A program made the position numbers and the translations under genes. A stretch of DNA of 64,000 bases from Actinomycetota bacterium (lineage in GTDB: Bacteria; Actinomycetota; AC-67): positions 330-64,329 of the forward strand of contig JBKHYG010000121.1 of NCBI GenBank assembly GCA_046565595.1, given 5' to 3'. Positions 24,840 to 64,000 of the stretch are shown here, one piece after another (within the stretch, counting starts at the first letter, position 1; each line of letters begins with the position of its first letter). Below the pieces are notes generated by a model that did no database searches, had not been told where the DNA came from, and was given only the letters and a program-made list of their open reading frames with translations.

Positions 24840-24849
24840 GAGTGGATGG

Positions 24850-25578: not shown

Positions 25579-25588
25579 GGTAGACCTG

Positions 25589-30535: not shown

Positions 30536-30553
30536 TAGTGAAGCCGTTCACAA
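30536..30553. promoter_or_regulatory. Rex operator (ROP) site 2: TAGTGAAGCCGTTCACAA
   Basis: One mismatch to consensus. It lies 29 bp upstream of the geranylgeranyl reductase ATG that heads the nuo gene string. Confidence 0.55.
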
Positions 30554-32921: not shown

Positions 32922-33478
32922 CGAGCGAAGAGTTGCTAGCGCTTTGCGCACGAGCCTCGTCCGAGGTCGGAGGCTCGCTTGAACCTGTGGATGAGCGAGG
33001 CGTGACGAGCCTGGAAGTGGCCGCGGATCGTTTGGTCGAAGTCGTCACCTGGTTCAGGGACAACGGACCCTTCGAACTTCTAGCCGACCTATCGGTGATC
33101 GACTGGCTCGGGATCAATCCTGACGAGAAGCGCTTTTGCGTGGGGTACATGCTCGCATCGCCACAGCATCCCGCACGGTTGCAACTGCGCGTCTACCTCG
33201 GGTCGCAACAGCCTAAGGTCGCTTCCTTGACCGGTCTGTGGCCGGGTGCGGATGCGCTGGAACGCGAGGCGTACGACTTCTTCGGGATCGGGTTCGAGGG
33301 CCATCCGAACCTGCGTCGCATGTTCATGCCCGACGATTGGGAGGGTCACCCTCAGCGCAAGGACTATCCCCTCGGCGGGATCGATGTTCGTTACGAGCAT
33401 GGGCAGGCTGTCACCCCACCCGATGACCGTGCGAAGCGTTCGACGACCACCTCTGGCTATCCGGGCAGGACCGCATGA
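32918..33478 (+). CDS. nuoC: NADH-quinone oxidoreductase subunit C
   Basis: ATGA coupling. NuoC 30-kDa subunit motifs. The upstream extension in the track was rejected. Confidence 0.85.
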
Positions 33479-34743: not shown

Positions 34744-35369
34744 GCGGTGGTGGCAAGGCGGATACATCGCTGATGGGGGTACCCCTGATCAGACCGGCCG
34801 TTGCGCCTCTCTCGGATCGGTTCCGTTCCGACGCCGACGAGGTGATCGCTAGATACCCCAAGGGCCAGGAACGCAGCGCGCTACTTCCGCTGCTCTACCT
34901 GGTCCAGGGTGAGCACGGCTTCGTCTCGAGCCAAGGCATCAGCGCCATCTCGGAGATGCTTGGCCTGACCCGAGCCGAAGTGGCGGGCGTGGCCAGCTTC
35001 TACACGATGTTCAAACGGTCGCCGCAAGGAAGATGGTTGATCAGCGTGTGTACCCAACCCGCGTGCGCGTTCGCTGGCGGGACCGAACTCATCCGGAGGT
35101 TGGAGGAGACGCTGGGCGTCGAGCGTGGAGGCACGAGCCCTGACGGCACGATCTCCATCGAAGAGGTCGAGTGTCTATGCGCCTGTGACGGCGCACCGGT
35201 GTTCAGCGTCAACTATGAGAACTACGAACGCATGGCCGTCGAGGACGCCGTGTCGATGGTCGAGTCCTTGAGATCTGGCGGCGAGCCTCCTGCGGGTGCG
35301 CGCGGTGAGATCCCGGCGGACTTCAAGACCGTGTCGCGCCGCATGAGCGGAGTGGAGGCGCCGCGATGA
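34740..35369 (+). CDS. nuoE: NADH-quinone oxidoreductase subunit E
   Basis: Thioredoxin-like [2Fe-2S] Cys ligands ([14 protein letters not shown]). ATGA coupled. Confidence 0.85.
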
Positions 35370-38979: not shown

Positions 38980-40142
38980 ACGAGGGCCTGCTCATCTCGA
39001 CCATCAAAGCCGTGATCGTCTTCGGAGCCCTGATGGGATCCGTACCTCTGGCCGTATGGGCTGAGCGCCGGGTCGTCGCCTTCATGCAGCAGCGGCTCGG
39101 ACCTAACCGCGTAGGGCCTTTCGGCATCCTTCAAGGCCTCGCCGATGGCGTGAAGCTCTTCTTCAAGGAGGACATCCGGCCGACCAATGTGGACAGAGGC
39201 ACCTACATCGCGGCGCCCATGATGTCGGTGATCCCGGCCTTCCTGTCAGCAGCGGTGATCCCCTTCGGTCCAGACATCACGATCGGCGGCCGTGTCGTCT
39301 CGATGCAACTGGCCGAACTGAATGTGGGCGTGTTGTTCTTCCTGGCGATGGGAAGCATGATGGTCTACGGCGTAACGCTGGCCGGTTGGTCGTCTGGCTC
39401 GGTCTATCCGCTGCTCGGTGGCGTCCGCAGCGCCGCACAGATGATCTCCTACGAGATGGCGCTTGGCCTCTCGGTGGTCGCTGTGGTGATGCAGTCGGGA
39501 ACCTTGTCGACCTCGGGGATCGTGGACGCCCAAGCGGGCTCCTTCCTGGGAGTCCTTCCTGCGTGGAACATCTTCACCCAGCTGCCGGCTTTCCTGATCT
39601 TCTGCGTGGCGGGTCTGGCTGAGACGAACCGAGCTCCCTTCGATCTGGCAGAAGCCGAGAGTGAGCTCGTCGGCGGCTTCCATACCGAGTACTCGAGCAT
39701 CAAGTTCGCGATGTTCATGCTGGCCGAGTACCTACATGTCATCACCACGAGCGCGATCGCGGTGACCTTGTTCCTCGGCGGCTGGCGCGGACCCACGCTG
39801 CCCTTCCTGACACCGCTGTGGCCGCTCGTCTGGTTCGGGCTGAAGCTCGGCTTCATGGTGTTCCTGTTCATGTGGGTGCGCGCAAGCCTTCCACGGGTCC
39901 GCTACGACATCCTCATGCGGTACGGATGGAAGACCCTGCTGCCCGCATCGCTGGGCTGGGTTGCCATCACCGCGGTCCTGCTGGTCCTGAGTTCGGAACT
40001 CGATCGGCCAACGCTCGCCTCCGTCCTCGGCTTGATCGCGGCACTGGTGATCCTGGGGCGTGCCGCGCTTGTGACCTGGCGTCGGTTCGGCACGCTAGGA
40101 CCCCTAGCCCTGATGAGGAAGGTGCGTCATGGCGTTCAGTGA
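38976..40142 (+). CDS. nuoH: NADH-quinone oxidoreductase subunit H
   Basis: NuoH/ND1 signature ([23 protein letters not shown]). Confidence 0.9.
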
Positions 40143-40695
40143 CATCGCAAGAGGGATGTCGATCGTCGCACGGCACCTCTTCAAGAAGCCGGTGACCAAG
40201 AGCTATCCCGAAGACCCCAAGGACCCGTCCCCGCGTTACCACGGTCGTCATGTCCTGAACAGGTATGAGGATGGCCTCGAGCGCTGCATCGGGTGCGAAC
40301 TGTGCGCTTGGGCATGTCCGGCCGACGCCATATTCGTGGAGAGCGCCGAGAACTCTCCGGAGGAGCGGTACTCGCCAGGCGAACGGTACGCGATCGACTA
40401 CCAGATCTCTTACGCGCGGTGCATCTTCTGTGGCCTGTGCATCGAAGCCTGCCCGACGCGCGCACTCACCATGTCGACCGAGTACGAACTGGCCGGACCG
40501 AGCCGCGAGGCTCTCGTCTACACAAAGGGCATGTTGCTGGCCGCACCCAACGAGGGAGCGGCGCCGACACCTCACACCGACGCCGAGGTCCAGGCGAGAG
40601 GCATCGACTACTACGGCGGACCGCAGGCGACCGACCCCCTGGCGTCTTCTGAGCGCGCAGAGCATCTACCTCCGCCGGAACCGGGGGCGCCCTGA
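40129..40695 (+). CDS. nuoI: NADH-quinone oxidoreductase subunit I
   Basis: Two CxxCxxCxxxCP motifs. Confidence 0.9.
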
Positions 40696-41231
40696 TGGAA
40701 CAGTGGGTCTTCTGGCCGATGGCCGTGTTCGCTCTGGCGAGCGCGATGATCGTCATCGTCACTCCCAACGCGGTGCATGCTGCCCTGGCCCTGGTTGCGA
40801 ACCTGTTCTCGATCGCGGTGCTGTACCTGCTGTTGGACGCACACTTCCTGGCTGCGGCTCAGGTGGTGGTCTACGCGGGAGCGATCGTCGTCCTCTTCCT
40901 CTTCGTGATCATGTTGCTCGGCGTGGATCGGCGAGAGGACCTTGCCGAGAAGGTCCCGGGTCAGCGCGCGATCGGCTTGGCATCCGTGCTGGGGATCGGC
41001 GCGATAACCGTCCTGGTCGTCCGTGCGGTCTACGCGACCACGACCTTCGGTGACCTATCTGCTGCGAACGAGAGTGGGAACATCGAGGCGCTCGGTCGGC
41101 TGCTCTTCAGCAGTTACCTCTGGCCCTTCGAGGTCGTATCGGTCCTGTTGGTAGTCGCAGCGATCGCTGCCATGGTCCTTGGGCGCAAGCGTCCAACCAG
41201 GGAACTCACTCATCAGGATCGTGACGCATGA
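40695..41231 (+). CDS. nuoJ: NADH-quinone oxidoreductase subunit J
   Basis: Five transmembrane helices, ND6-like. TGATG coupled. Confidence 0.8.
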
Positions 41232-41530
41232 TCCAGCCCGCACAGTTCTTGGCATTGGCCGCCATGCTCTTCGCGGTCGGTTCGGCTGGCGTGATCCTGC
41301 GTCGGAACCCGCTGGTGATGTTCATGGGGATCGAGCTGATGCTGAACGCGGTCAACCTGACCCTGGTCACCTTCGCCAAGGTGCATGGGACGCTCGACGG
41401 TCAGGTGCTCGCCTTCTTCGTCATCGTCGTCGCTGCTGCCGAGGTGGTTGTCGGACTCGCGATCATCGTGCAGATGTTCCGACGGGTCCGAGGCGCCGAT
41501 GTGGATGATCGGAGTTCGCTCAGATGGTGA
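41228..41530 (+). CDS. nuoK: NADH-quinone oxidoreductase subunit K
   Basis: 100 aa, three transmembrane helices, ND4L-like. Confidence 0.85.
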
Positions 41531-43437
41531 TAGCCCACCAGAGCACACCCGCGATCATCGAGAACGCGTGGATCGTCGTCGCCTTCCCCCTCCTAGGTGC
41601 AGCCTTGTTGTTCGCCTTCGGGCGGAGGATCGGCCGCGGTTCCGGACCTATCGCGACGATCATGATGATCGGATCGGCGGTGGGCTCGCTGATGATCTTC
41701 GGCGAGTTGCTGAAGCGACCGAGCGAACAGAGATCCTTCGTCGAGCCTCTATGGCAGTGGTTCAGCGCGGGCGATGCGAGCGTCAGCATCTCGACCCGTA
41801 TCGATCCTCTGACGGTCATGATGCTGCTGGTAGTGACCTGCGTGGGGGCGCTGATCCACCTCTACTCGGTCGGCTACATGAGGGGCGACGCGCGCGAACC
41901 GCGCTTCTTCGCCTACCTCAATCTCTTCGCGGCCTCGATGCTTGTACTGGTGCTGGCTGACAACTTCCTGGTGCTGTTCCTCGGCTGGGAGCTGGTCGGC
42001 ATGTGCTCGTACCTGTTGATCGGATTCTGGTTCGAGGATCGAGGCAACGCCGCTGCGGCCAAGAAGGCGTTCATCACGAACCGTGTGGGAGACGCGGCCT
42101 TCCTGATCGCGCTCTTCCTGATGCTGTCGACCTTCGGTTCCTTCTCGTTCGAGGTGATCGGGCAGGCTTCCGGCGCGGTCCTGTCCGCGGGCACCGCGCT
42201 GGCGATCGCGCTGCTGCTGTTCGTGGGGGCAGCCGCCAAGAGCGCCCAGATCCCGCTGTATGTGTGGCTGCCGGACGCCATGGCCGGGCCCACGCCGGTG
42301 TCGGCTCTCATCCATGCCGCCACCATGGTCACTGCCGGCATCTATCTGGTGGTGCGTGCGGCCCCCATCTTCGAGGTATCTCCGCTGGCCTCCGATGTGG
42401 TCGCATGGGTCGGTGTCGCGACGATGCTCCTGGCTGGGTTGATGGCGATCGTCCAGGACGACATCAAGAAGATCCTCGCCTACTCGACCGTCAGCCAGCT
42501 CGGCTACATGTTCATCGGGGTCGGAGTTGGAGCCAGCGCCGCTGGTCTCTTCCATCTCGTCACACACGCCTTCTTCAAGGCGTTGCTGTTCCTGGGCGCG
42601 GGGAGCGTCATGCATGCCCTCTCCGGGCGCACCGACATCACCACGATGGGTGGCTTGTTCCGCAAGATCCCGTGGACCTCGGTCACCTTCATCGCTGGTT
42701 GGCTAGCGATCATCGGCTTCCCCTTGACTGCGGGCTTCTTCTCCAAGGACCAGATCCTCGAGGGCGCCTATGTCGCCGACCAGCAGGCCATCTGGATCCT
42801 CGGTCTGGTTGGAGCAGTCATCACCGGGTTCTACATGACCCGCCTGGTTGTGCTGACCTTCTTCGGCAAGCCACGAGATCCGGATCTACATCCTCACGAG
42901 TCGCCTCCCTCCATGGTCTTCCCGCTGGTGTTGCTGGCGGTCGCGAGCCTCGTCGGCGGTTGGCTGATCAACGCGCATCCCGAGGATGGTCGTCTCGTCG
43001 GCTGGCTCGCTCCAGTCCTTGGCCAGCACGAGGCCGCCCACGGGGCACTCTCTGCGACGACGCTGTCGATCATCGCCTCTGGCGCCGGCCTCATAGGAGC
43101 CCTGGTAGCCATCGTCGCGTACGGCTTCCGCCGCTTCGACTGGCAGGCCCGCCGCGAGAGGCCGGGGATCCTCTGGCGGGTTGCCCGCGACAGGTTCTAT
43201 GTCGACCACGCGTACGAGTTCATCTTCACCGGCCTCGGGAAGGTTGGCGCTACCGCGCTTGCCTATGTCGTCGATGCGCGATGGATCGACGGAGCGGTCG
43301 GGTCGGTCGGAGCTGTGTCCACCAGGGTCGCGCAGCTCGCTCGGCGCCTACAGAACGGCCTGGTACGGACCTACGCGCTCGGGATCCTGGCGGGGACGGT
43401 CCTGATGCTCGCGTACATGGTGGGGAGGAACTGGTAG
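41524..43437 (+). CDS. nuoL: NADH-quinone oxidoreductase subunit L
   Basis: 637 aa, antiporter-like ND5 family. Confidence 0.9.
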
Positions 43438-44931
43438 ATGGGCTGGCTGTCGGTGACCCTCTGGGCGCCTGTCGTGGGGGCTCTAGTCATCGGGTTCCTT
43501 CCGCGTCGGTACGGTGCCGCTGCCAAGGGGCTCGCCCTGGCCGCTTCCTTGACAGCCTTCATCTCGTCGCTGGTCGTGCTCGGGCTGTTCGAGACCGGAG
43601 TGGCCGGCTATCAACTGGCCGAGAAGGCCGAGTGGATCCGGTCCTTGGGCGCTTCCTATGGACTCGCCGTCGACGGGATCAGTCTCTGGCTGGTCATCCT
43701 CACCGCGTTCCTGACACCGATCTGCATCCTTGCCTCTTGGGACAACATCAACGAGCCCAAGCGCTTCTTCGCGTTGCTGCTCGTCCTCGAGACCGCAGTC
43801 ATCGGCGTGTTCATGGCTACGGACCTGCTGCTGTTCTACCTGTTCTGGGAAGCGATGCTGATCCCGATGTACTTCCTGATCGGGATGTGGGGTCACGAGC
43901 GGCGGATCTACGCGGCGATCAAGTTCTTCCTCTACACGCTGCTGGGAGGTCTGGTCATGCTCGCGGGGGTCGTCGTGTTGGCCTTCAGCGCGAAGGGCCA
44001 GCTTGGTGGCATCACCTTCGATCTCGAGCAACTCCAGACCGCGACGATAGGACTTGGCACGCAGCGGTGGTTGTTCGCTGCCTTCATGCTCGCCTTCGCG
44101 ATCAAGATCCCGATCTTCCCCTTCCATACCTGGCTTCCCGATGCGCACACCGAAGCGCCGACGGCAGGGTCGGTCATGCTGGCCGGAGTGCTGCTGAAGT
44201 TGGGTGCCTACGGGATGCTGCGTTACGGGCTGGGGCTGTTCCCGGAAGTGGCGATCGAGGCGGGTCCGATACTTGCGGTCCTTGCGATCATCGGTATCGT
44301 CTATGGCGCTCTGGTCGCAACGATGCAGACCGACCTGAAGCGTCTGGTCGCATATTCGAGCGTCAGCCACCTGGGTTTCGTGGTCCTGGGGATCGCCGCT
44401 CTGACCACCACCAGTCTGCAAGGCGCGACCCTGCAGATGATCAATCATGGACTGTCGACCGGAGCCTTGTTCCTGGTGGTCGGGATGGTCTACGAGCGAC
44501 GCCACACCAGACAGATCGAGGAACTCGGCGGCCTCGCGTCGGCTGCGCCGTTGATGGGAGGAGCGATGCTGTTGGCGAGCCTCGCCAGCCTTGGCCTGCC
44601 CGGCTTGAACGGCTTCGTGGGCGAGTTCCTGATCCTCGCCGGCAGCTTCGGGGTGAACAAGCTCTACGCGATCGTCGGTGTCAGCGGCGTGATCCTCGCG
44701 GCTCTCTACCTGTTGTGGGCCTACCAGCGGAGCTTCCAAGGACCTATCGAGCGACCGGAGAACCGCATCGTCGACCTCACCGGCCGAGAGCGTCTGGTGT
44801 TGGCACCGGTATTGGCTCTGCTGATCGTCTTCGGCCTCTTCCCGCGTCCGATCCTCGAGCGCAGCGAACCAACCGTGCGTTCGCTGCTCGAGCGGGTTGA
44901 ACAGATCCGCGCTGCGCAGGAGGCCCGCTGA
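43438..44931 (+). CDS. nuoM: NADH-quinone oxidoreductase subunit M
   Basis: 497 aa, ND4 family. Confidence 0.9.
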   Translation: MGWLSVTLWAPVVGALVIGFLPRRYGAAAKGLALAASLTAFISSLVVLGLFETGVAGYQLAEKAEWIRSLGASYGLAVDGISLWLVILTAFLTPICILASWDNINEPKRFFALLLVLETAVIGVFMATDLLLFYLFWEAMLIPMYFLIGMWGHERRIYAAIKFFLYTLLGGLVMLAGVVVLAFSAKGQLGGITFDLEQLQTATIGLGTQRWLFAAFMLAFAIKIPIFPFHTWLPDAHTEAPTAGSVMLAGVLLKLGAYGMLRYGLGLFPEVAIEAGPILAVLAIIGIVYGALVATMQTDLKRLVAYSSVSHLGFVVLGIAALTTTSLQGATLQMINHGLSTGALFLVVGMVYERRHTRQIEELGGLASAAPLMGGAMLLASLASLGLPGLNGFVGEFLILAGSFGVNKLYAIVGVSGVILAALYLLWAYQRSFQGPIERPENRIVDLTGRERLVLAPVLALLIVFGLFPRPILERSEPTVRSLLERVEQIRAAQEAR

Positions 44932-46385
44932 TGCCGGTAGAGCAGGCTCCCGAGATCATCTGGCACGCGCTCTCGCCGATGCTGATCCTGCTGGCTGGCG
45001 GCATGCTGCTGCTCCTCGTTGGAGTGTTCGCTCCCGCCCTTCCCCGTCGCTTCCTGGCGATCGGATCGTTCCTGACCGTCGTGCTGTCGGGCATCTTCCT
45101 CGCCGCTCAGCTCCCTTCCCAACCTCGCATCACCATGAACGACATGGTCATCATCGATGGTGTGGGCCTCTTCGCTTCGATGGTGATCCTCGCAGCTGCG
45201 GCGTTCGTGATCCCGGTGACCCATTCGTATCTCCGCGAACATGGATGGAACCGGGTCGAGTATCAGCCGCTGCTGTTGTTCGCGACCCTCGGGATGGTCA
45301 TGCTCGCCACGGCGAACGATCTCATCATGGTCTTCATCGCCATCGAGGTCTTGTCGCTCGCGCTGTACACGATGGTGGGCATCGCCAAGAGAGAACGCAC
45401 GGCTCAGGAAGCGAGCCTGAAGTACTTCCTCCTCGGTGCCTTCTCCAGCGCGATCCTGCTCTACGGAGTGGCCTTGTTGTTCGGCGGTACCGGATCCACT
45501 CGGATCCCCGCCATCGCCGACACGATCGCTGCGGGCGGAGCTGACGGCAGACTGGTCTTCGCCGGGCTCGCCTTGCTCATCACCGGTTTCGCCTTCAAGA
45601 TCGGCGCGGTGCCGTTCCACGCTTGGACACCAGATGTGTATCAGGGCGCTCCCACCGCTGTGACGGCATTCATGGCTGCGGGGACCAAGGCCGCCGCCTT
45701 CGCAGCGTTGCTCCGCACGCTGCTGGTGTCCTTCGGAGCGATCGCGTGGGATTGGCGTCCGGTGCTCTGGGCCATCGCCATCGCAAGCATGGTCCTCGGA
45801 TCCGTGGTCGCGATCGTCCAGACCGACATCAAACGGATGCTCGGATATTCGAGCGTCGCACATGCGGGTTTCATCCTCATCGGCGTGGTCGCGGCCGATC
45901 GTGACGGGCTCGCCTCCTCTCTGTTCTATCTGGCCGTCTACGCCCTGATGACCATCGGAGCGTTCGTGTCGGTGATGGCCAGTGGTAGGGGAGACGATGA
46001 GCGAAGCGACCTGGCATCCTGGGCTGGGCTCGGGCACGCCGAGCCGCTGTTCGCGGGCGTCATGACCTTCTTCCTGTTGTCGCTCGCAGGGATCCCGCCT
46101 ACGGGAGGTTTCGCCGCCAAGTTCCTGGTGTTCGCCGCCGCCGAAGGCCAGGGTGAAACAGGACTGGTGATCGTGGGTGTCTTGAGCAGCGTCGTAGCGG
46201 CGTTCTTCTATCTCCGCGTGATAGTCCTCATGTGGCTGCAGGACCCGCTGGACATGCAGCGATCCGCGCTCGATCGGGTCAGTGCCTGGACGCTCGGCGC
46301 AGCAGCAGGTCTCGTCGCGATCATCGGCATCTACCCACAGGCGTTGATCGACCTCGCCCGCAACGCCGCGACGCTGGCAGGCTGA
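44931..46385 (+). CDS. nuoN: NADH-quinone oxidoreductase subunit N
   Basis: 484 aa, ND2 family. Confidence 0.9.
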   Translation: MPVEQAPEIIWHALSPMLILLAGGMLLLLVGVFAPALPRRFLAIGSFLTVVLSGIFLAAQLPSQPRITMNDMVIIDGVGLFASMVILAAAAFVIPVTHSYLREHGWNRVEYQPLLLFATLGMVMLATANDLIMVFIAIEVLSLALYTMVGIAKRERTAQEASLKYFLLGAFSSAILLYGVALLFGGTGSTRIPAIADTIAAGGADGRLVFAGLALLITGFAFKIGAVPFHAWTPDVYQGAPTAVTAFMAAGTKAAAFAALLRTLLVSFGAIAWDWRPVLWAIAIASMVLGSVVAIVQTDIKRMLGYSSVAHAGFILIGVVAADRDGLASSLFYLAVYALMTIGAFVSVMASGRGDDERSDLASWAGLGHAEPLFAGVMTFFLLSLAGIPPTGGFAAKFLVFAAAEGQGETGLVIVGVLSSVVAAFFYLRVIVLMWLQDPLDMQRSALDRVSAWTLGAAAGLVAIIGIYPQALIDLARNAATLAG

Positions 46386-47365
46386 TGGGCCTGAAACTGC
46401 CCGCGCTCCCTCGGCTAGAGGCTGAGCTGCGAGAAGATCTTGAGGCGGTCGAGTCGCTCCTCAGGTCCTCCGTCGCCTCGGATCTGCCACTGCTGGACGA
46501 AGCTTCGCGCTTCTTGATCGAGGCCGGAGGGAAGCGCTTCCGCCCTCTCCTGGTGCTCCTGTCGGGACGCTTCGGGAAACAGGACGCGCCCGAGAGCCTG
46601 CGTGCGTGCGCGGCGGCGATCGAACTGACGCATCTCGCGACGCTGTATCACGACGATGTGATGGATGAGACCATGACCCGTCGCGGGGTCGACACGGCCC
46701 ATCGCAGGTACGGCAACGCGACCGCGATCTTGGTCGGCGACTTCCTGTTCGCGCGAGCCTCGAAACTGTCCGCACCGCTCGGGGTATATGTATCAGAGAG
46801 ATTGGCTTCGACGATCGGGGACCTGGTAACCGGTCAGGTCATGGAGACCGAACTCTCCTCCGGTGGAGACCAGCGTGTGCCTACCGTAGAGGAACACCTC
46901 GAGGTGCTGCGGTTGAAGACTGCCGTGCTGATCGAAACCTCATGCCACCTCGGGGCCTATCTAAGTGGAGCAGACCACGGGACAGTCCAGGCGCTGACGA
47001 GGTTCGGCGCACAGATCGGCCTTGCCTTCCAGTTATCCGACGATCTGCTCGACCTCGTTGGGGACGAGAGCGAGACAGGCAAGCGGCCGGGAACGGACCT
47101 GCGTGAAGGGGTCCTGACCCTGGCGCCGCTGCTGACCTTGTCCAGCGACTCCGAGTCAGCGAAGCGTCTGCGGTCGGCCCTTCAGGAGGCGGATCTGGAT
47201 ACGGCGATCGAACTGTTGCGGCAGGACGGCAGCATCGATCTTGCGCGGGAAAAGGTACGCGCCCATCGAGACATGGCGCTTCAGGCCTTGGAGCAACTTC
47301 CTAGGTCCGACGCGGCTGACGCGCTCAGATGGATGGCCGAGACACTCGACGATCGGACGCTGTGA
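46385..47365 (+). CDS. polyprenyl diphosphate synthase (trans-isoprenyl diphosphate synthase family)
   Basis: DDxxD motifs (LYHDDVMDE, FQLSDDLLD). Start overlaps the nuoN stop as TGATG. Confidence 0.8.
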   Translation: MGLKLPALPRLEAELREDLEAVESLLRSSVASDLPLLDEASRFLIEAGGKRFRPLLVLLSGRFGKQDAPESLRACAAAIELTHLATLYHDDVMDETMTRRGVDTAHRRYGNATAILVGDFLFARASKLSAPLGVYVSERLASTIGDLVTGQVMETELSSGGDQRVPTVEEHLEVLRLKTAVLIETSCHLGAYLSGADHGTVQALTRFGAQIGLAFQLSDDLLDLVGDESETGKRPGTDLREGVLTLAPLLTLSSDSESAKRLRSALQEADLDTAIELLRQDGSIDLAREKVRAHRDMALQALEQLPRSDAADALRWMAETLDDRTL

Positions 47366-56001: not shown

Positions 56002-57306
56002 GTGACCGTCGAAGCGCTCCTTTCCCGTCTAGAGAACTCCCAGAGCAAGGCTGCGGTGCTGGGCCTGGGCTATGTCGGCTTGCCTCTGGTGATCAGCCTC
56101 GCCCGCACCGGCGTGCCGGTGATCGGTTTCGATGTGAAGCCCGATGTCGCGAGCCGCCTGGGCAGAGGTGTCAGTCACATCGACGATGTCTCCGATGCCG
56201 ACCTCGCCGAGGTCTCCGCGCTGACCCGGTTCACCGCCGACATCCAAGACATCGAGGTTGCCGATGTCATCTTCATCTGCGTTCCGACCCCGCTCGCCGT
56301 CGGGAAGCAGCCGGATGTGTCCTACATAGAGCGCGCCGCCCACCTGATCGCGACGGTCATGAGGCCAGGCCAACTCGTGATCCTCGAGTCGACGACATAT
56401 CCCGGCACGACCGACGACGCCGTGCTACCGATCCTCGAAGGATCGGGCCTGAAACTCGATAAGGATTTCCTGCTCGCCTATTCGCCCGAGCGCGTGGATC
56501 CAGGCAACAGCTCGTTCCACACGATGAACATCCCGCGCGTCGTCGGTGGCGTGACACCCCTATCGACCCGGGCTGCAGAGCTCATCTACTCGAGGATCGT
56601 GCCGAAGATCTTCACCGTCAGCAGCGCGCGCACCGCCGAGATGGCCAAACTGCTCGAGAACACCTTCCGGTGGGTCAACATAGCTCTCGTCAACGAGTTG
56701 ACCTTCGTCGCGCGAGCGATCGGCGTCGACATCTACGAGGTCATCGACGCGGCGGCGACCAAGCCGTTCGGCTTCATGCCCTTCTATCCCGGCCCCGGTG
56801 TGGGCGGACACTGCATCCCACTCGACCCGTTCTACCTGCAGTGGGTGGCCAAGGTCACCGGCGAGGGGACGCGCTTCGTCGAACTTGCCGAGTCGGTCAA
56901 CTCCTCGATGCCGCGCGTGGTGGTCGACCGTGTGACGGAAGCTCTGAACGACAGGAGCAGATCGGTACGCGGCTCGAACATCCTGGTTCTGGGGGTCGCC
57001 TACAAGCCGGATGTGAGCGATCAGCGCGAGTCGCCTGCGGCCGCCTGCATCTTGAGGCTCCAGAAGCTCGGCGCGCGCGTCACATACTCAGATCCGCACG
57101 CACCCACCTACCGAGAGCACGGTGTCGATCTGGCCTCCGTCGAACTGAGCGAAGAGGCCATCCGGGGGGCGGACTGCGTCCTGGTGCTCACCGATCACTC
57201 GGCTTTCGACTACGACATGGTCCTGGCGACTGCAGACCTGATCGTCGATACCCGGAACGCCTTCGGTCGTCGTGGTCTACGCGACGACAAGATATCCACC
57301 CTGTAA
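56002..57306 (+). CDS. wecC: UDP-N-acetyl-D-mannosamine dehydrogenase / nucleotide-sugar dehydrogenase
   Basis: GTG start after a GGAGG Shine-Dalgarno. NAD-binding GLGYVGLPL and catalytic-Cys region GGHCIPLDP. Confidence 0.8.
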   Translation: MTVEALLSRLENSQSKAAVLGLGYVGLPLVISLARTGVPVIGFDVKPDVASRLGRGVSHIDDVSDADLAEVSALTRFTADIQDIEVADVIFICVPTPLAVGKQPDVSYIERAAHLIATVMRPGQLVILESTTYPGTTDDAVLPILEGSGLKLDKDFLLAYSPERVDPGNSSFHTMNIPRVVGGVTPLSTRAAELIYSRIVPKIFTVSSARTAEMAKLLENTFRWVNIALVNELTFVARAIGVDIYEVIDAAATKPFGFMPFYPGPGVGGHCIPLDPFYLQWVAKVTGEGTRFVELAESVNSSMPRVVVDRVTEALNDRSRSVRGSNILVLGVAYKPDVSDQRESPAAACILRLQKLGARVTYSDPHAPTYREHGVDLASVELSEEAIRGADCVLVLTDHSAFDYDMVLATADLIVDTRNAFGRRGLRDDKISTL

Positions 57307-57430
57307 CCGCACTATTTCGCCCCGCTTTGGGCTGATTCGTAGTGGTTGCGTATCCGGTGTGGTCCCTGTGAACTACCGGAGGTCCTTGACCTGCTTCCGC
57401 ATGTCCTTAAGCATCAGTCTCCCTCCCCGT

Positions 57431-60325
57431 ATGCGACGCGCCGCTGCATGTGTCGTGGCGGCGGCGTTAACGCTCACGCTGCCGGCCGTGGCTGCGCGCG
57501 CACAGACCCCGCTCCCGCCTGACGCCGTCCTCACGATCCCCGGTCATGGTTGGGGCCACGGCCGGGGGATGGGCCAGTGGGGAGCCAAGGGCATGGCCGA
57601 CCAGGGTAAGAACTACCGAGAGATCCTGTCCTACTACTACTCCTCGGTCGAGTTCGGAGACAGAGGCGATGAGTGGTTGCGGGTGCTGGTGGAAGCGTCT
57701 CCCGATGTCGTCATCACGAGCGAGTCGAGCTTCAAGATCAGTTACTCAGACGGCGAGGTCTTAGCGACATCTGGCGATGCGAAGCCCTTCTGGCGTGTCA
57801 TCTACACCGGGGGCGCGCATCGCGCTCAGCGATCCGAAGCCTGGAACGGCCCCTGGGAGACCGTCGCCACCGATACCCGGTACATGATCTTCGCGCCGCA
57901 GGGCTCATTGCTCGAGGTCGTCTTCGGCAACGGAACCGTGCGGCGCTATCGGGGGAACATCATCGCCCGCTACGCGAGTGTCGATGGTATGCGCACGATA
58001 AACAGCCTCCGGATGGAGGACTATCTGCGCGGCGTCGTGCCTCGCGAATCTCCCTCGGGTTGGCCGGCAGAACAGTTGAAGTCTCAAGCGGTCGCTGCAC
58101 GCACCTATGCGTACCGCAAGCGCGACGACTCGAGATCGCGCGGCAACACCTTCGACATCTGTGCGACTACCGCGTGTCAGGTCTACGGAGGCGCAGGCCA
58201 ACGCTCCCGCCCCGGCGGGGCCATCAGCAGCCTCGAGGCATCCTCAACCGACGGGGCGCTCTCGGCGACGAAGGGGACCGTCCTGAACTACGCCGGAAAG
58301 GCCATCCTGGCGGAGTATTCGAGCAGCACGGGTGGCTACACAGCCCCTGGCTCGGTCCCATATCAGAAGGCGGTCCCTGACCCGACCGATGCCGTGAGCC
58401 CACACCATGAGTGGACCGCGAAGGTATCGGTCCGCGAGATCGAGTCCACCTGGCCCGCCATCGGTCGCCTGGTCCGCATCGAGGTGACCGAACGCAACGG
58501 CTTCGGCGAGTGGGGTGGCCGCGTGAAGCGTCTGAGGATCGTCGGGTCGTCGAAGACGATCGAGATCTCTGGGGACGCCTTCCGAGGAGCCTTCGCCTGG
58601 CCTTCCAAGTCCGACGGCCTCCGTTCGAGTTGGTTCACGATCGGCTACTGGGCTTCCGAACGGGTCCTCACCCCCGGCTCGACGACCATCCCGAGAGGCC
58701 AATCGAAACAACTGACCTACCGGTTCCGCAACCTCGGCACCGAGCCGTGGCCGGTCGGCGGGACGGTCGGCTTCTCCACCGATGCCGGAAGCAGCCTGCA
58801 AGCCGCCTCCTGGCCGTCACCGACCCGCCCCGCCTGGATCTCTCGCAATGTGACCCGCCCCGCCGCATCGAGCATCGCCGAGGGGGAGGTAGCCGAACTG
58901 ATCGTCGCGCTCGACACATCGTCTGCCCCGGTGGGCAGCGTGACCCTGCCCCTACGGCTAGAGGTCGAGGGCGGCACGCGGCTGGATGCGATCAACCTGA
59001 AGGTAGATGTCGTGCCGTCCTGGTTCGAGTTGGCTCCCAACATCCTGTCGAACGGTTCCTTCGAGAAGGGACTCTGGGCTTGGAGCGCTGACCGTGCTTC
59101 GCTCGTCGATGGCCGTGACCTGACCCGAGGCGTGTCAATGCAGCCCGGAGGCTCGATCACCCAGACCGTGAACCTGGCTGGCGGTTCCGGGCGTCGTTTC
59201 ATGTGGGGAGCCTGGACGAGCGCGGACCAGGGCGCAGACCTCGAGGTCAAGGTGCTTGTGACCTTCGCGGACGGACGCAGCTACATCAAGCGTCTCGCCG
59301 TACCGGGTGGTCCTCACGACTGGACATACACCGAGCAGGGGTTCCGGACCGCTGCGGACCGGCAGGTATCGAACATCCGTTTCGAGGCCAGGTCCGTCGG
59401 GGGATCTGCCCGCCTGGACGCTGTCAGACTGATCGAGGATCCGGTCGCCAACTCGAGCTTCGAGCAGGACGAGCTGACCGCCTGGTCGATCCCTTTGGCT
59501 CCTGCGGACGCGCCGTTCGCGCGCACCGCGACTTGGACCGCCTCCGACGGAGATCAGGCCCTGATCATCCCCGGTCGGGTCGAACCGATCCTCGTCGAAC
59601 AGCGGTTCGCTCTGGACGCTCCGGCATGGGAACGCTACTCGTGGCGCTTCAGCCATCGGTCCTACCAGTCCACGGCGGGCCAGGGATCGTGGCTGGCTTC
59701 GCTGACACTCGTGCATCCCGACGGCACCGAGACCGTCTCGGAGATCCCGATAGACACAGCGCAACATCCTTGGGAGAGCGCGCGGGCCGAGCTGGTGGCT
59801 CGAAAACCGGTCACCGAAGGGATCCTCCGATTCCGGGCCGAGGGCCAGACGGGCTCTCTCTATATGGATCAGATCCGAGTCTTCCGCTCGAGGGTCAGCG
59901 ACGCCAGTTTCGAGGCAGGTGACCTGTCGGCGTGGAACACCGGCGGTCTCCAACCAGACGACCAGGTCGCCACTTGGGCCGCTCGGGACGGCGACCTGGG
60001 CCTGCGCCTGACCGGGCCGGCCAGATCCTTCGTCACCCAGAACCTCGTCCTGCGGGGCACCCCCAGCCGGACCTTCCGTCTGGCAGCCTGGAACAATTCC
60101 AGCAGGGCCAGATCGGGCCGCGTGGATGTGGCGGTGACCTTCTTCCACACCGACGGCACCCGTTCAGCGCAGGTGTTGGACTTCACAGGGCCAGATCACG
60201 CCTGGACCTACCGCGAGATCCGCATCAGCTCGGCCAAGCGCTTCGACGGCGTCCGGGTGGCTGTGATGCTGGACGGCCCATCTGGCTGGACGAGTTTCGA
60301 CTCGATACGGCTGATCGACGCCTAG
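57431..60325 (+). CDS. secreted SpoIID/LytB-domain protein with three tandem CBM4_9-like modules
   Basis: Signal peptide MRRAAACVVAAALTLTLPAVAARA. SpoIID hallmark GHGWGHGRGMGQWGA. Three ~140-aa repeats begin NGSFEKGLWAW, NSSFEQDELTAW and DASFEAGDLSAW. Start chosen at ATG 57431; an in-frame ATG at 57401 is an alternative. Confidence 0.7.
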   Translation: MRRAAACVVAAALTLTLPAVAARAQTPLPPDAVLTIPGHGWGHGRGMGQWGAKGMADQGKNYREILSYYYSSVEFGDRGDEWLRVLVEASPDVVITSESSFKISYSDGEVLATSGDAKPFWRVIYTGGAHRAQRSEAWNGPWETVATDTRYMIFAPQGSLLEVVFGNGTVRRYRGNIIARYASVDGMRTINSLRMEDYLRGVVPRESPSGWPAEQLKSQAVAARTYAYRKRDDSRSRGNTFDICATTACQVYGGAGQRSRPGGAISSLEASSTDGALSATKGTVLNYAGKAILAEYSSSTGGYTAPGSVPYQKAVPDPTDAVSPHHEWTAKVSVREIESTWPAIGRLVRIEVTERNGFGEWGGRVKRLRIVGSSKTIEISGDAFRGAFAWPSKSDGLRSSWFTIGYWASERVLTPGSTTIPRGQSKQLTYRFRNLGTEPWPVGGTVGFSTDAGSSLQAASWPSPTRPAWISRNVTRPAASSIAEGEVAELIVALDTSSAPVGSVTLPLRLEVEGGTRLDAINLKVDVVPSWFELAPNILSNGSFEKGLWAWSADRASLVDGRDLTRGVSMQPGGSITQTVNLAGGSGRRFMWGAWTSADQGADLEVKVLVTFADGRSYIKRLAVPGGPHDWTYTEQGFRTAADRQVSNIRFEARSVGGSARLDAVRLIEDPVANSSFEQDELTAWSIPLAPADAPFARTATWTASDGDQALIIPGRVEPILVEQRFALDAPAWERYSWRFSHRSYQSTAGQGSWLASLTLVHPDGTETVSEIPIDTAQHPWESARAELVARKPVTEGILRFRAEGQTGSLYMDQIRVFRSRVSDASFEAGDLSAWNTGGLQPDDQVATWAARDGDLGLRLTGPARSFVTQNLVLRGTPSRTFRLAAWNNSSRARSGRVDVAVTFFHTDGTRSAQVLDFTGPDHAWTYREIRISSAKRFDGVRVAVMLDGPSGWTSFDSIRLIDA

Positions 60326-60337
60326 GTAGGCCGCGCC

Positions 60338-60353
60338 GCGCGCACGAGCGCGC
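60338..60353. terminator. GC hairpin GCGCGC-ACGA-GCGCGC downstream of the SpoIID gene
   Basis: Perfect 6-bp GC stem, 13 nt after the stop. No clear U-tract follows. Confidence 0.3.
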
Positions 60354-60478
60354 ATGCCTGATGCGCCGCTTTGAAGAGCGCCCGGAATGCTGGGTTATGA
60401 TGCCGCGCGCCGTGGGGAGATCCGCGGTCCGCGCCGGTGCGCGCGGCGACGCAAGGCGACCGGGGGGCGCCAACGGCA

Positions 60479-60850
60479 GTGACCGACTACTTCTGGCAGT
60501 ACGGAACCCTTGGGGCTCTCGCGGTCCTCGCGGTCGGGTTCGTCGCGGTCGGATTCACGGTCAACCGCATCATGAGGCCCAAGAAGCCTCGCCCCGAGAA
60601 GCTCACGACCTACGAGTGTGGCGTGGATCCCGTCGGTGACGGTTGGTCTCAGACGCAGATCCGTTACTACGTCTTCGCCTTCCTGTTCGTGATCTTCGAT
60701 GTTGAAAGCGTCTTCCTGTTCCCGTTCGCGACCATCTTCGAGACCTTCCCGAACCCCGGTCTCGTGTTGGTCGAGATGATCATCTTCATCCTCATCCTGG
60801 CGGTCGGCCTGCTGTATGCATGGCGCCGCCGCGTCCTCGAGTGGCTCTGA
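60479..60850 (+). CDS. nuoA: NADH-quinone oxidoreductase subunit A, second paralog
   Basis: Start uncertain. GTG 60479 aligns with the N-terminus of the first NuoA (VTDYFWQYG against TLVDYLPIL); GTG 60437 is an alternative. ECG motif and three transmembrane helices present. Confidence 0.7.
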
Positions 60851-60851
60851 C

Positions 60852-61397
60852 ATGGGTCTGATCGACAAGGTCGATTTCCCGCAACCGGCGAAGTTCATCT
60901 TCAACTGGGGCCGGCGGTATTCCCTTTGGGTCATGAACTTCGGCCTGGCTTGCTGTGCGATCGAACTGATCGCGGCTTCCACCAGTCGTCATGACTTCAT
61001 CCGCCTGGGCGTCATCCCCGTGGCGCATGGTCCCCGCCAGGCGGACCTGCTGGTCGTGGCTGGCACGCTGACCGACAAGATGGCTCCTGCCCTGAAGCGC
61101 GTCTATGAGCAGATCCCCGAGCCCAAGTATGTGATCAGTTTCGGCTCCTGCTCCAACTGCGGGGGTCCCTTCTGGGACTCGTATTCGGTCACCAAGGGGG
61201 TCGACCAGATCGTTCCCGTGGATGTCTATGTACCGGGTTGCCCTCCGCGTCCCGAGGCCCTGCTCGAAGGCATCCTGCTGCTGCAAGACCGCATCAAGGA
61301 CGAGTCCTTGAAGGAACGCTTCGAGCGGCGCGCCGCGACCGAACCGATCGTGGTCGGTGGCGGCTCCATCAACGACACGAGCATCGACGACGGATGA
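60852..61397 (+). CDS. nuoB: NADH-quinone oxidoreductase subunit B, second paralog
   Basis: N2 ligand motifs [20 protein letters not shown]. Confidence 0.85.
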
Positions 61398-61879
61398 ACG
61401 CTTCCGAACTAGCCACCTACATCACCGGCCAGACCGACGCGGTCTCCCGGCACGAGGAATCGTGCGGGCAACTGTCGATCTGGGTAGACCCCTCGCGCTG
61501 GGTCGACGTCGCGACGCTCCTGCGGGACGACCCGCGATTGCACTTCGACTTCGTGACCTTCCTGACCGCTGTGGATCTTGAGACCGACGGCTTCGAGATC
61601 GTGGCGAACCTCTACTCTGTGCGTCGCATCCACCGTGTGCTGCTGAAGACGATCGTCGGTCGCGAGGCACCGCGCTTGCCGACCCTTTCTCAGGTCTGGA
61701 AGGGCATGAACTGGTGTGAGCGTGAGACATGGGAGCAGTTCGGGATCCAGTTCGACGGACACCCGAACCTCGTGAAACTGCTGCTTCCGGTCGAGTTCGA
61801 CGGCTATCCGCTCCGTAAGGACTTCCTGCTCATGACCCGCGAGGCCAAGGAATGGCCGGGGGAGAAGGAGCCGGCATGA
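61394..61879 (+). CDS. nuoC: NADH-quinone oxidoreductase subunit C, second paralog
   Basis: ATGA coupled. 161 aa, 30-kDa subunit family. Confidence 0.8.
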
Positions 61880-63057
61880 GCATGGACACCTCTGAACTCG
61901 GCATGCTCCCTGGCGGTCCAGGCGAAGGCGTGCAGGTGATCATCGCCGGCGATGACGACTTCGCGACACAAGAGATGACGCTGTCCATCGGGCCGCAGCA
62001 CCCTGCGACCCACGGGGTCCTGCGTGTCGTGCTGACCCTCGACGGAGAGGTCATCAAGGAAGCCGTGCCCGTCATCGGCTACATGCACCGCGGGTTCGAC
62101 AAACTTGCCGAGGTCCGCGACTACCGCCAGATCATCGCGCTCAGCAATCGCCACGACTGGCTCTCGGCGTTCGGGAACGAGGTCGGCGTCGCGCTGGCGG
62201 TCGAACGCCTGATGGACCTCGAGGTTCCCGATCGGGCGCAGTGGATCAGGATGCTGTTCTGCGAGTGGAACCGGATCCTGAATCACCTGATGTTCATCGG
62301 CTCCTTCGGGCTCGAGCTCGGAGCGATGACGCCGATCTTCCTGGCTTTCCGTGAACGCGAACAGATCCAGGCACTCCTCGAGATGGCAACCGGCGCGCGG
62401 ATGCACTACACCTACTGCCGCGTCGGCGGGCTGAAGGAAGATCTTCCTCGCGGGTTCCTCAAGCGGTCCGAGCAGATGGTCAAGACGATCCGTAGCCGCC
62501 TGGTCGATTACGAAGGTCTGCTGCTCGGGAACGAGATATTCAAGAAGCGCACCGTAGGTATCGGCGCCCTGGCGCCCGAGATCGCCAAGGCCTACGGCGT
62601 GACGGGTCCGATCCTTCAGGCCACCGGCGTCGCAGAGGACTCACGCAAGACCGACCCATATCTCAAGTACGACCAGATCGACTTCGAGGTTCCGGTCGGA
62701 GACAACGGCGACTCGTTCGATCGGTTCTTCGTGCTGTACCGCCGCGTCCAGGAATCGCTGAAGATCATCGAGCAGATCCACGACAAGATCCCTGCCGGCC
62801 CGATCATGCCGGGCAAGATGCCGAAGAACCTCAAGCCGCCGGAAGGTTGGGTCTATCAGCGCACCGAGAACTCGCTCGGCGAGACCGGCTACTACCTGGT
62901 CAGCCGCGGCGAGAAGGAGCCATGGCGCTTCAAGATGCGCACACCCAGCTTCCACAATGTTTCGATGATCCCCGAACTACTCGAGGGCATCCTGTTGCCC
63001 GACCTGATCAGTGTGTTGGGTAGCGTCTTCTATGTCGTGGGGGATGTCGACAGGTGA
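61876..63057 (+). CDS. nuoD: NADH-quinone oxidoreductase subunit D, second paralog
   Basis: ATGA coupled. 49-kDa subunit motif LSIGPQHPATHGVLRVVL. Confidence 0.85.
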   Translation: MSMDTSELGMLPGGPGEGVQVIIAGDDDFATQEMTLSIGPQHPATHGVLRVVLTLDGEVIKEAVPVIGYMHRGFDKLAEVRDYRQIIALSNRHDWLSAFGNEVGVALAVERLMDLEVPDRAQWIRMLFCEWNRILNHLMFIGSFGLELGAMTPIFLAFREREQIQALLEMATGARMHYTYCRVGGLKEDLPRGFLKRSEQMVKTIRSRLVDYEGLLLGNEIFKKRTVGIGALAPEIAKAYGVTGPILQATGVAEDSRKTDPYLKYDQIDFEVPVGDNGDSFDRFFVLYRRVQESLKIIEQIHDKIPAGPIMPGKMPKNLKPPEGWVYQRTENSLGETGYYLVSRGEKEPWRFKMRTPSFHNVSMIPELLEGILLPDLISVLGSVFYVVGDVDR

Positions 63058-64000
63058 TCTTCGAGCACTTCTTCGACAACGCTTGGGTCGTGCTCGGCCT
63101 CAAGTTGGGCGCGGTCTTCGGCTTCTTCCTGACCGCGCCGTTGATCATCGGTTACGCCGAGCACAAGGTCCTGGCGCACATGCAGTCACGGCTTGGTCCG
63201 ATGGAGGCGGGCAAGTTCCACGGTTGGGCACAGCTGATAGCCGATGGCGTGAAGTTCGTCCAGAAGGAAGACATCATCCCGGCGGCCGCTGACCGCAAGG
63301 TCTTCGCCTTCGCGCCGGCGGTCGCGCTCCTTCCGGTGATGCTGACCTTCCTGGTGCTGCCCTTCGGCCCCGGTCCCGCAGGCAACGAAGCCGCGGGGTA
63401 CTGGGGCGAGAACCTGGATCTGTCCCTGTTCTTCGTGCTAGCCATCAGCGCGGTCGGAGTCATCGGGATGCTCATGGCCGGATGGTCCAGCGCCAACAAG
63501 TATTCGCTGATCGGCGCCCTGCGTGGAGCTGCGCAGCTGATCGCATACGAGCTTCCTCTGGTCCTGGCAGCTGCCGCGGTCGCGATGATGGCCGGAAGCG
63601 TGTCTCTGGTCGAGATCGCCGCCGCGCAAGAGAACACCCTTTGGTTCGTGGTTCCCCAGTTCGCCGGTTTCGCCATCTTCGTGATGGCATCGCTCGCCGA
63701 ACTCTCCCGCCCTCCCTTCGATATGCCGATCGCCGATTCCGAGATCATCTTCGGTCACATGACCGAGTACACCGGCCTGCGGTTCGCGTTGTTCCTGCTC
63801 GCCGAGTACGCAGGCATCGTCGCGCTCTCGGCGGTTGCGGTCGTGCTGTACCTGGGCGGCTGGAACGGCATCTTCGGTCTTCCCATCCCCGCTCCGCTAT
63901 GGACGCTGGCCAAGATCGGCGCGCTTAGCTTCTTCGTCATCTGGTTGCGGGCGACCATGCCGCGTCTCCGCGAGGACCAGTTGCAGAAGCTCGCATGGAA
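63054..64000 (+). CDS. nuoH: NADH-quinone oxidoreductase subunit H, second paralog (3'-truncated at the window edge)
   Basis: Absent from the ORF track because no stop is reached. GTG 63054 overlaps the nuoD2 stop as GTGA. The translation is unambiguously NuoH-like (GYAEHKVLAHMQSRLGPMEAGKFHGWAQLIADGVKF). Confidence 0.85.
   Translation, partial: MIFEHFFDNAWVVLGLKLGAVFGFFLTAPLIIGYAEHKVLAHMQSRLGPMEAGKFHGWAQLIADGVKFVQKEDIIPAAADRKVFAFAPAVALLPVMLTFLVLPFGPGPAGNEAAGYWGENLDLSLFFVLAISAVGVIGMLMAGWSSANKYSLIGALRGAAQLIAYELPLVLAAAAVAMMAGSVSLVEIAAAQENTLWFVVPQFAGFAIFVMASLAELSRPPFDMPIADSEIIFGHMTEYTGLRFALFLLAEYAGIVALSAVAVVLYLGGWNGIFGLPIPAPLWTLAKIGALSFFVIWLRATMPRLREDQLQKLAW

Follow-up and report, generated by a model that had tools for sequence, protein, structure and literature searches.

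A second, probably N-module-less complex I-like operon with tryptophan at the quinone-site tyrosine position in an Actinomycetota bacterium

We analysed a stretch of 64,000 nucleotides from an uncultured Actinomycetota bacterium (GenBank assembly GCA_046565595.1, contig JBKHYG010000121.1, positions 330 to 64,329 of the forward strand; hereafter the window), which carries a canonical 14-gene operon for NADH-dependent complex I (nuo1) and, at 60.4–64.0 kb on the + strand, five further consecutive complex I genes, nuoA2-B2-C2-D2-H2 (nuo2; Pfam E-values 2e-28 to 5e-99). Because Pfam E-values run from 1e-28 to 1e-99, the nuo2 genes are real gene content and no chance pattern. We consider it probable that they form the 5′ third of an operon in its own right, nuoA2-B2-C2-D2-H2(-I2-J2-K2-L2-M2-N2), and our favoured reading, held with moderate confidence, is that this operon encodes a complex I-like enzyme of 11 subunits without the NADH dehydrogenase module (N-module, NuoEFG), a second isozyme beside the NADH-dependent one of nuo1. 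The nuo2 start codons were assigned with the help of the sequence itself and of the genes called in L003, an orthologous locus of a relative (Table 1). All five open reading frames (ORFs) are intact and free of frameshifts, and the last is truncated by the window end at 315 of ~336 codons (the L003 ortholog has 336 aa). An earlier reading of the same DNA from the letters alone (the sequence-only reading) had placed a second nuoA2-B2-C2-D2-H2 series about 14 kb past the complete nuoA-N operon, and Pfam matches and coordinates agree with it, the distance from the nuoN1 stop to the nuoA2 start being 14,093 bp. It had also described nuoD as fused to nuoH. The nuoH2 start does overlap the nuoD2 stop in the GTGA that it pointed out, a stop/start overlap of 4 nt, but these are two separate genes and there is no fusion protein.

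Since the window stops inside nuoH2, we read the continuation of the cluster from the loci of relatives. In L003, whose NuoD is 90% identical, the order is nuoA-B-C-D-H-I-J-K-L-M-N followed by an M48 peptidase gene, and the genes upstream match those of the window (an epimerase, UDP-glucose dehydrogenase and a large SpoIID protein). L009 (NuoD 81% identical) has the same eleven nuo genes and then the M48 peptidase, and L010 (70%) has the same order and peptidase; its assembly is error-prone, and nuoI was not called there, an ORF with a frameshift being all that is visible of it. The more distant L004 (46% NuoD identity) and L007 (50%) are also nuoABCDHIJKLMN, and a search of genome contigs for NuoD2 gave two distant loci of 62–65% identity; of these, L001 offers little sequence past the cluster, and its high-GC ORFs gave no information. 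No nuoE, nuoF or nuoG was found within or adjoining the nuo clusters of L003, L009, L010, L004 and L007, and among the window ORFs searched with Pfam none with a NuoE, NuoF or NuoG domain lies between nuoD2 and nuoH2, as the sequence-only reading had stated; in nuo1, by contrast, nuoE, nuoF and nuoG separate nuoD from nuoH. Its proposal of an 11-subunit enzyme without the NADH module is thus borne out in L003 and L009, which have nuoI-N and no E, F or G, and in L010 within the limits of its frameshifted nuoI. Paralogs of nuoEFG immediately downstream, one of the findings that it named as overturning the proposal, do not occur in the orthologous loci, which end with nuoN and then the M48 peptidase. 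This HtpX-like peptidase gene follows nuoN2 in four loci (L003 17133-17996, L007 19362-20201, L009 18929-19894 and L010 20143-20673). A further complex I-like cluster, L006 (3431-21231), has a distant short-form NuoCD fusion (44% identical), duplicated NuoJ/K, five antiporter-like genes, several domainless ORFs and no NuoB Pfam match; it was tried as a relative of nuo2 and set aside as a different, odd complex.

Comparison of the window with L003 gave dS values of 0.7–1.5, which are near saturation, and dN/dS of 0.017–0.13 over all five genes; nuoB2 is the most conserved (0.017), and NuoA2 is 88% identical in amino acids to its L003 ortholog with dN/dS of 0.11. Ratios of 0.02–0.13 at near-saturated dS indicate that nuo2 is functional and under strong purifying selection. 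A second copy could in principle be a decaying duplicate, and its mere existence is the one thing that speaks for a pseudogene cluster; the five intact ORFs, the low dN/dS and the conservation of the cluster in many genomes make this extremely improbable, in line with the absence of frameshifts already remarked on in the sequence-only reading.

The products retain the cofactor sites of complex I. NuoB2 keeps the four cysteine ligands of cluster N2, a tandem pair and two more (GLACCA, GSC and PGCPP are conserved in the alignment to PSST/NDUFS7), and in L003 and L009 the CxxCxxCxxxCP motif occurs twice in NuoI2, which gives eight cysteines for two [4Fe-4S] clusters. NuoD2, which is 100% identical to an NCBI protein labelled ‘MAG: Actinomycetota bacterium’, lacks, in contrast to group 4 hydrogenases, Cys at the two pairs of NiFe-ligand positions (GYMHRGFDK in the N-terminal region and GSVFYVVGDVDR at the C-terminus) and scores 339 bits with Nqo4 compared with 224 for MBS and 140–144 for MbhL/HycE. 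An AlphaFold model of NuoD2 made with 106 relatives (mean predicted local distance difference test score 82, predicted template-modelling score 0.86) has a template-modelling score of ~0.85 to NDUFS2/Nqo4 chains. Hence, because the cofactor ligands are kept, the NiFe cysteines are absent and the fold matches the 49-kDa subunit, nuo2 is a genuine complex I-type quinone (Q) plus proton-pumping (P) module without the N-module.

Two further features touch these subunits. NuoI2 is 279–291 aa long in L003 (10344-11183), L009 (12192-13067) and L010 (~12400-13300) compared with the usual ~160–190; the 4Fe-4S motifs are followed by a linker rich in Ala and Pro and then by a conserved basic tail (..IDxExYxxxxAxGKSERxARAxxKKAxxxxRR), which is duplicated in L010 and absent in the distant clusters L004 and L007. 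The tail of the relatives matched no Pfam family, and that it is a docking or membrane-contact element is speculation. R92 of NuoD2, the Arg beside cluster N2, does not vary within the clade. In L007 a Methyltransf_28 (PF02636) gene (18385-19338) comes immediately after nuoN, and another is found 2.7 kb from the orphan nuoD2 of Cryptosporangium arvum discussed below (L008 6337-7347); NDUFAF7/MidA, which methylates the Arg beside cluster N2 in the 49-kDa subunit, belongs to this family.

The two operons of the window are far apart in sequence. NuoD2 is 38% identical to NuoD1, with a gap opposite residues 307–347 of D1 (41 residues), and in the NuoD2 model a coil between helix 280–304 and strand 324–332 stands in for the missing segment. 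At this site canonical NuoD, mitochondrial NDUFS2 and cyanobacterial NdhH have an insert of at least 25 residues, which is missing in NuoD2 (the short form); MbsL, MbhL, HycE, the FpoD profile and a 366-residue NCBIfam NuoD profile align with NuoD2 in a single uninterrupted stretch. The idea that the insert tracks the presence of the N-module was rejected as a general rule, since cyanobacterial NdhH has the insert without an N-module. The closest solved relative of NuoD1 is Mycobacterium smegmatis NuoD (560 bits), that of NuoD2 is Thermus Nqo4 (339 bits) and that of NuoH2 is Thermus Nqo8. In a neighbour-joining tree NuoD2 and its actinobacterial relatives form a clade of their own, and NuoD1 falls among the insert-bearing canonical sequences. 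The 38% identity and the separate clades thus indicate that nuo1 and nuo2 are ancient paralogues and no recent duplication.

This distance bears on an alternative in which the Q and P modules of nuo2 borrow the single NuoEFG of nuo1, giving two NADH:menaquinone oxidoreductases that differ in their quinone sites and pumping arms. The two operons are neighbours, 14 kb apart here and a few genes apart in L010; hybrid machinery of this kind has been speculated for Streptomyces (PMC9239103), and the genomes listed by Spero et al. include one that has a single nuoEFG and the other nuo genes in two copies (PMC4453560). However, NuoD2, NuoC2 and NuoI2 are related only distantly to their nuo1 counterparts, and in NuoD2 the 41-residue segment is missing; NuoC2 is short (~15 residues beyond the 30-kDa domain) and lacks the longer C-terminus of NuoC1. 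Moreover, short-form NuoD is found in the N-module-less clusters L004 and L007, the short NuoD and FpoD profiles of NCBIfam each align with D2 in one stretch, and nuo2 has an apparent promoter of its own without the Rex operators seen before nuo1 (see below). We regard a hybrid NADH-dependent isozyme as unlikely.

The quinone site of nuo2 departs from the canonical one. Residues were read from ungapped alignments to Nqo4 and NuoD1 and are given in the numbering of Thermus Nqo4 and Nqo8. In a canonical site His38 and Tyr87 are ligands of the quinone head group, with Asp139 behind His38; NuoD2 keeps His38 as the invariant H46 and has Asp139 conservatively replaced by Glu147 (nearly invariant in an alignment of 106 sequences), and it deviates at Tyr87, where Trp95 is found. 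His93 occupies the position of Met85, and the end motif is altered at Asp401-Pro402 (Table 1). Trp95 is invariant in 106 aligned actinobacterial relatives down to 37% identity; R[HT]DW is present in 115 of the 120 closest database proteins, and RHDW in 116 of the 120 proteins nearest to a distant member of the clade. Of the 128 nearest representatives of 50%-identity clusters, 83 have a NuoD of the short form; Trp occurs in 19 short-form clusters and in none of the 45 insert-bearing ones. A ‘tyrosine swap’, with Tyr386 taking the place of Tyr87, was considered and rejected, position 386 being Phe in ~90% of relatives. NuoH2 co-varies, with R36H, R50E and E223I, and NuoH1 keeps the canonical residues. 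The 11-gene cluster L004, which is of the Tyr type, keeps the canonical residues in both NuoD and NuoH.

The Trp-type clade can be recognized by an NRHDW motif, an SxF[FY]VVGD[VI]D[RK] end and the lack of the 25–41-residue insert, all of which are found in NuoD2. Its carriers are metagenome-assembled genomes of Actinomycetota, Egibacteraceae, Micromonosporaceae, Pseudonocardiales, Nanopelagicales and the cultured Cryptosporangium and Sphaerisporangium. In the window and in L010 a Trp-type NuoD is encoded next to a canonical nuo operon, and in Cryptosporangium arvum its gene is an orphan; orphan copies of NuoD2 in Actinomycetes that have diverged further lack the Asp139 region as well. In L007, which is probably from a freshwater actinobacterium, a heliorhodopsin gene (6291-7094) lies 1.2 kb upstream of the Trp-type 11-gene nuo cluster.

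The Tyr87 equivalent has been called strictly conserved, as a ligand of the quinone head group and a proton donor (PMC8119997, PMC9120487), and site-directed mutants lose most of the decyl-ubiquinone activity (PMC4758237, PMC9120487). In Yarrowia, Y144F/W/H mutants lost decyl-ubiquinone activity and still reduced Q1/Q2 (PMC9120487). As judged from its residues, the quinone pocket of nuo2 is unlike that of every characterised complex I, and since it lacks the proton-donating Tyr and the nearby Asp, its quinone chemistry, preferred quinone or sensitivity to Q-site inhibitors probably differs from that of nuo1. More tentatively, nuo2 might be a natural ‘tyrosine-less’ complex I, which either reduces menaquinone by another route of proton donation or is intrinsically insensitive to inhibitors of the piericidin/rotenone class; we hold this to be possible rather than probable. 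If active, such an enzyme would serve as a natural experiment on how far quinone reduction and coupling depend on the Tyr/His pair of proton donors, and a tyrosine-less nuo2 also bears on natural inhibitor resistance: if insensitive, it would be a resistant, ferredoxin-fed back-up entry point to respiration, in a phylum that produces such inhibitors. Degli Esposti (2015) described Y87W, a change at position 401 and changes at NuoH E35/R36/R50 as rare, in piericidin-producing Streptomyces, and linked them to self-resistance. The distribution seen here suggests that these changes are a phylum-wide signature of the nuo2 paralogue, a view that takes the Streptomyces changes from that description; if so, Y87W is a paralogue signature and no producer-specific adaptation.

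The same residues raise the alternative of a catalytically disabled or repurposed complex, one that does not reduce quinone and serves ion transport or another acceptor, as in MBS/Ehr-type relatives. Tyr87, Asp401 and Nqo8 Glu223 are all replaced, the divergent orphan NuoD2 copies of Actinomycetes lose the Asp139 region too, and the Streptomyces nuo2 cluster has lost C and D. On the other hand, strong purifying selection in this clade maintains His38, the Asp139 equivalent, every ligand of N2 and the whole membrane arm, the Yarrowia Y144F/W/H mutants still reduce Q1/Q2 (PMC9120487), and NuoD2 is far closer to complex I than to MBS or MBH (339 bits compared with 224 and 140). A disabled complex is hence quite improbable in our judgement.

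In the 11-subunit reading that we prefer, a soluble low-potential carrier, most likely ferredoxin, would donate directly to the clusters of NuoI2, which would be exposed because there is no NuoG. Electrons would then pass from NuoI2 to N2 in NuoB2 and on to menaquinone bound between NuoD2, NuoB2 and NuoH2, and the membrane arm of A/H/J/K/L/M/N would couple this flow to proton translocation. Ferredoxin is the most likely candidate by analogy, because it feeds electrons to cyanobacterial NDH-1 and is currently proposed for bacterial 11-subunit enzymes (PMC11238625). These enzymes are widely distributed, Actinobacteria included, and a genome survey found no universal partner (PMC3144371). Several points weigh against this reading. 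The nuoI2-N2 genes of this genome lie beyond the window end and are unseen; neither the window nor five related loci show a gene for ferredoxin, PFOR/KOR or another partner linked to nuo2; and nuo1 is also present wherever flanks are visible (window and L010), which leaves room for a shared NuoEFG. Moreover, since Tyr87Trp matches mutants that lose decyl-ubiquinone activity, efficient quinone reduction by nuo2 should not be presumed.

The lack of a linked donor-producing gene also speaks for reverse operation, in which nuo2 would work as a menaquinol:ferredoxin oxidoreductase driven by the proton-motive force and feed ferredoxin-dependent reactions in an aerobe. Complex I is reversible, a forward NADH-dependent isozyme adjoins, and the hydrophobic, Tyr-less pocket might favour quinol oxidation or anion chemistry. 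The sequence carries no indication of direction, however, and no ferredoxin-consuming pathway is linked to nuo2 either, and we consider this direction improbable.

As possible donors the sequence-only reading had named ferredoxin and F420H2, pointing to two genes nearby, an LLM/F420-type oxidoreductase and a bc-operon ferredoxin. The former is a luciferase-like gene in a cytochrome c biogenesis context 43 kb from nuo2 and the latter a 2[4Fe-4S] gene in another operon 37 kb away; at these distances they are no evidence on the donor. Actinobacteria make F420, and an F420H2-dependent enzyme like Fpo would find some favour in this, in the luciferase-like gene within the window and in the alignment of NuoD2 with the FpoD profile end to end in one stretch. 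However, the NCBIfam scores fall far short of their cut-offs (FpoD 333/600, FpoH 256/475 and FpoC 73/220 bits), no FpoF/FrhB-domain protein was found in the scanned window ORFs or in the flanks of L003, L004, L007, L009 and L010, and the luciferase-like gene sits beside the cytochrome c biogenesis genes and not near nuo2. The F420H2 proposal is thus left without support, and an Fpo-like enzyme is very improbable.

The two operons also appear to be regulated separately. The motif CTGGGTTATGAT, which includes TATGAT and lies ~80 nt upstream of nuoA2, is common to the window and L003 and has one change (TATCAT) in L009, while the rest of the upstream DNA is poorly conserved; it may be the −10 element of a separate nuo2 promoter. 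A scan of 60000-64000 found no consensus sigma-70 promoter and no intrinsic terminator, and an Rfam search gave no family match. Two matches to the Rex operator sit between rex and the geranylgeranyl-reductase-like gene that precedes nuo1, and the operator scan gave no Rex site upstream of nuo2, which suggests that control by NADH/NAD+ is limited to nuo1.

The gap between nuo1 and nuo2 in the window holds a block of glycosyltransferase, ABC-2, epimerase and SpoIID genes. In L010 (1-8355) the end of nuo1 (nuoK-L-M/N) is followed by polyprenyl synthase, uracil-DNA glycosylase and one small ORF, and then by nuoA2. Since L010 keeps the two operons a few genes apart, the tandem is conserved and the ancestral arrangement, and the block in the window looks like an insertion. 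The protein encoded directly upstream of nuoA2 is secreted and 1017 aa long; it begins with a SpoIID domain and has several carbohydrate-binding repeats (CBM_4_9-like), and its position before nuoA2 is kept in L003. Menaquinone-related genes flank nuo1, the geranylgeranyl-reductase-like (MenJ-like) gene upstream and the polyprenyl synthase downstream; as listed, the latter ORF overlaps the end of nuoN1 by ~150 nt, and its true start is probably later. Further away is a bc-type complex operon of unusual make-up, with a split cytochrome b, preceded by a small membrane-protein ORF.

Table 1. Features of the two nuo operons and of other genes in the window
Feature	Coordinates	Strand	Remarks
nuoA2	60479-60850	+	GTG start, 123 aa; PF00507, E=2.5e-34; length equals that of the gene called in L003
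nuoB2	60852-61397	+	ATG start, 181 aa; PF01058
nuoC2	61394-61879	+	ATG start, 161 aa; PF00329; ATGA overlap with nuoB2 stop
nuoD2	61876-63057	+	ATG start, 393 aa; PF00346 in two stretches; ATGA overlap with nuoC2 stop
D2/H2 junction	63054-63057	+	GTGA; GTG start of nuoH2 overlaps TGA stop of nuoD2 (63055-63057); same in L003
nuoH2	63054-64000	+	GTG start, 315 codons open to window end; PF00146, E=4.8e-99
Trp95 of NuoD2	62158-62160	+	TGG; at Thermus Nqo4 Tyr87 = bovine NDUFS2 Tyr108
Phe385-Tyr386 of NuoD2	63028-63033	+	replace Asp401-Pro402 of the canonical SxDPVMGxVDR end motif
CTGGGTTATGAT motif	60390-60401	+	TATGAT at 60396-60401
SpoIID/CBM_4_9-like protein	57272-60325		adjoins nuoA2 upstream
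Block between nuo1 and nuo2	47.3-60.3 kb		11 kb
rex	29743-30390	-	
Rex operator matches	30409-30426; 30536-30553		TTGTGAA-N4-TTCACAA, 1 mismatch each
Geranylgeranyl-reductase-like gene	30582-31898		precedes nuo1
nuo1 operon, nuoA-N	31993-46385	+	canonical, 14 genes; nuoE, F, G between D and H
nuo1 A-D	A 31993-32442; B 32442-32921; C to 33478; D 33475-34743		
nuo1 E-H	E to 35369; F 35366-36649; G 36646-38979; H 38976-40142		
nuo1 I-K	I 40129-40695; J 40695-41231; K 41228-41530		
nuo1 L-N	L 41524-43437; M 43438-44931; N 44931-46385		
Polyprenyl synthase	46232-47365		as listed
Luciferase-like gene	16896-17936		beside cytochrome c biogenesis genes
Small membrane-protein ORF	22390-22812		
bc-type complex operon	22809-26464		
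2[4Fe-4S] ferredoxin-like gene	22809-23147		112 aa; bc operon
Cytochrome b, b6-like part	23178-23966		bc operon
Cytochrome b, subunit-IV-like part	23997-24839		bc operon
Rieske	24769-25578		bc operon
Di-haem cytochrome c	25562-26464		bc operon

The arrangement of nuo2 is in itself already known and ordinary for the phylum. 11-subunit complex I-like enzymes have been recorded in Actinobacteria (PMC3144371), a second nuo2 cluster near nuoA-N is described in Streptomyces (PMC9239103, PMC8388888), and genomes with two complex I isozymes are documented (PMC4453560). What the present comparison adds is that actinobacterial nuo2 appears to be a distinct, ancient clade with a short-form NuoD and a coordinated, invariant replacement of the catalytic Tyr.

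Compared with the canonical 14-subunit NDH-1 (Thermus thermophilus Nqo1-14, M. smegmatis Nuo and nuo1 itself), the Q and P modules of nuo2 are homologous and NuoD has the same fold, whereas the N-module genes and the NuoD insert are lacking and Tyr87, Asp401 and Met85 of Nqo4 and Arg36, Arg50 and Glu223 of Nqo8 are replaced. Cyanobacterial and chloroplast NDH-1, a ferredoxin:plastoquinone oxidoreductase, likewise has 11 core subunits and no N-module, and it is the best-documented case of direct donation by ferredoxin, at NdhI. Its ferredoxin binding needs the extra subunits NdhS/V/O and it keeps the catalytic Tyr; inside the nuo clusters of L003 and L009 no extra small genes that could be candidates for NdhS/V/O were found. 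NdhH has kept an insert of 25 residues, and its alignment to NuoD2 falls into two stretches (294 bits); NuoD2 scores 325 with the NCBIfam NdhH profile against a cut-off of 583. Fpo of Methanosarcinales also lacks NuoEFG, and its FpoD is of the short form and aligns with NuoD2 in one stretch; however, Fpo requires FpoF, which was not found in the scanned window ORFs or the related loci, and the scores with the Fpo profiles fall far short of their cut-offs. Fpo is without His38/Asp139 and has Tyr87 (PMC4758237), a pattern opposite to that of NuoD2, which keeps His38 and loses Tyr87.

The bacterial 11-subunit enzymes (Desulfitobacterium hafniense, Dehalococcoides, Chlorobium and Bacillus cereus) resemble nuo2 in gene set and order and in lacking NuoEFG; they also share a NuoD without the NiFe cysteines, the retained N2 and ferredoxin as the suspected donor. 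NuoD2 is likewise a short form and matches the 366-aa NCBIfam NF008974 end to end, but it falls below the cut-off of that family (433 compared with 522) and belongs to an actinobacterial clade of its own, and nuo2 differs further in adjoining a canonical 14-gene operon. The Tyr-type 11-subunit cluster that we examined, L004, has the canonical residues, from which NuoD2 differs by Tyr87 to Trp and Asp401 to Phe. Streptomyces nuo2 (SCO4599-4608) is also a second nuo set near nuoA-N without E, F and G; there C is missing and nuoD2 lies elsewhere, whereas here A, B, C, D and H are contiguous, with I-N in the orthologs. The orphan Trp-type NuoD of Cryptosporangium and Sphaerisporangium falls in the same NuoD clade as NuoD2, and from the description of Degli Esposti and these related genera we infer that Streptomyces NuoD2 does so as well. 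The present lineage keeps nuo2 as an intact 11-gene operon (whole in relatives, with its first five genes in the window), which is probably the ancestral state of the fragmented nuo2/nuoD2 system of Streptomyces.

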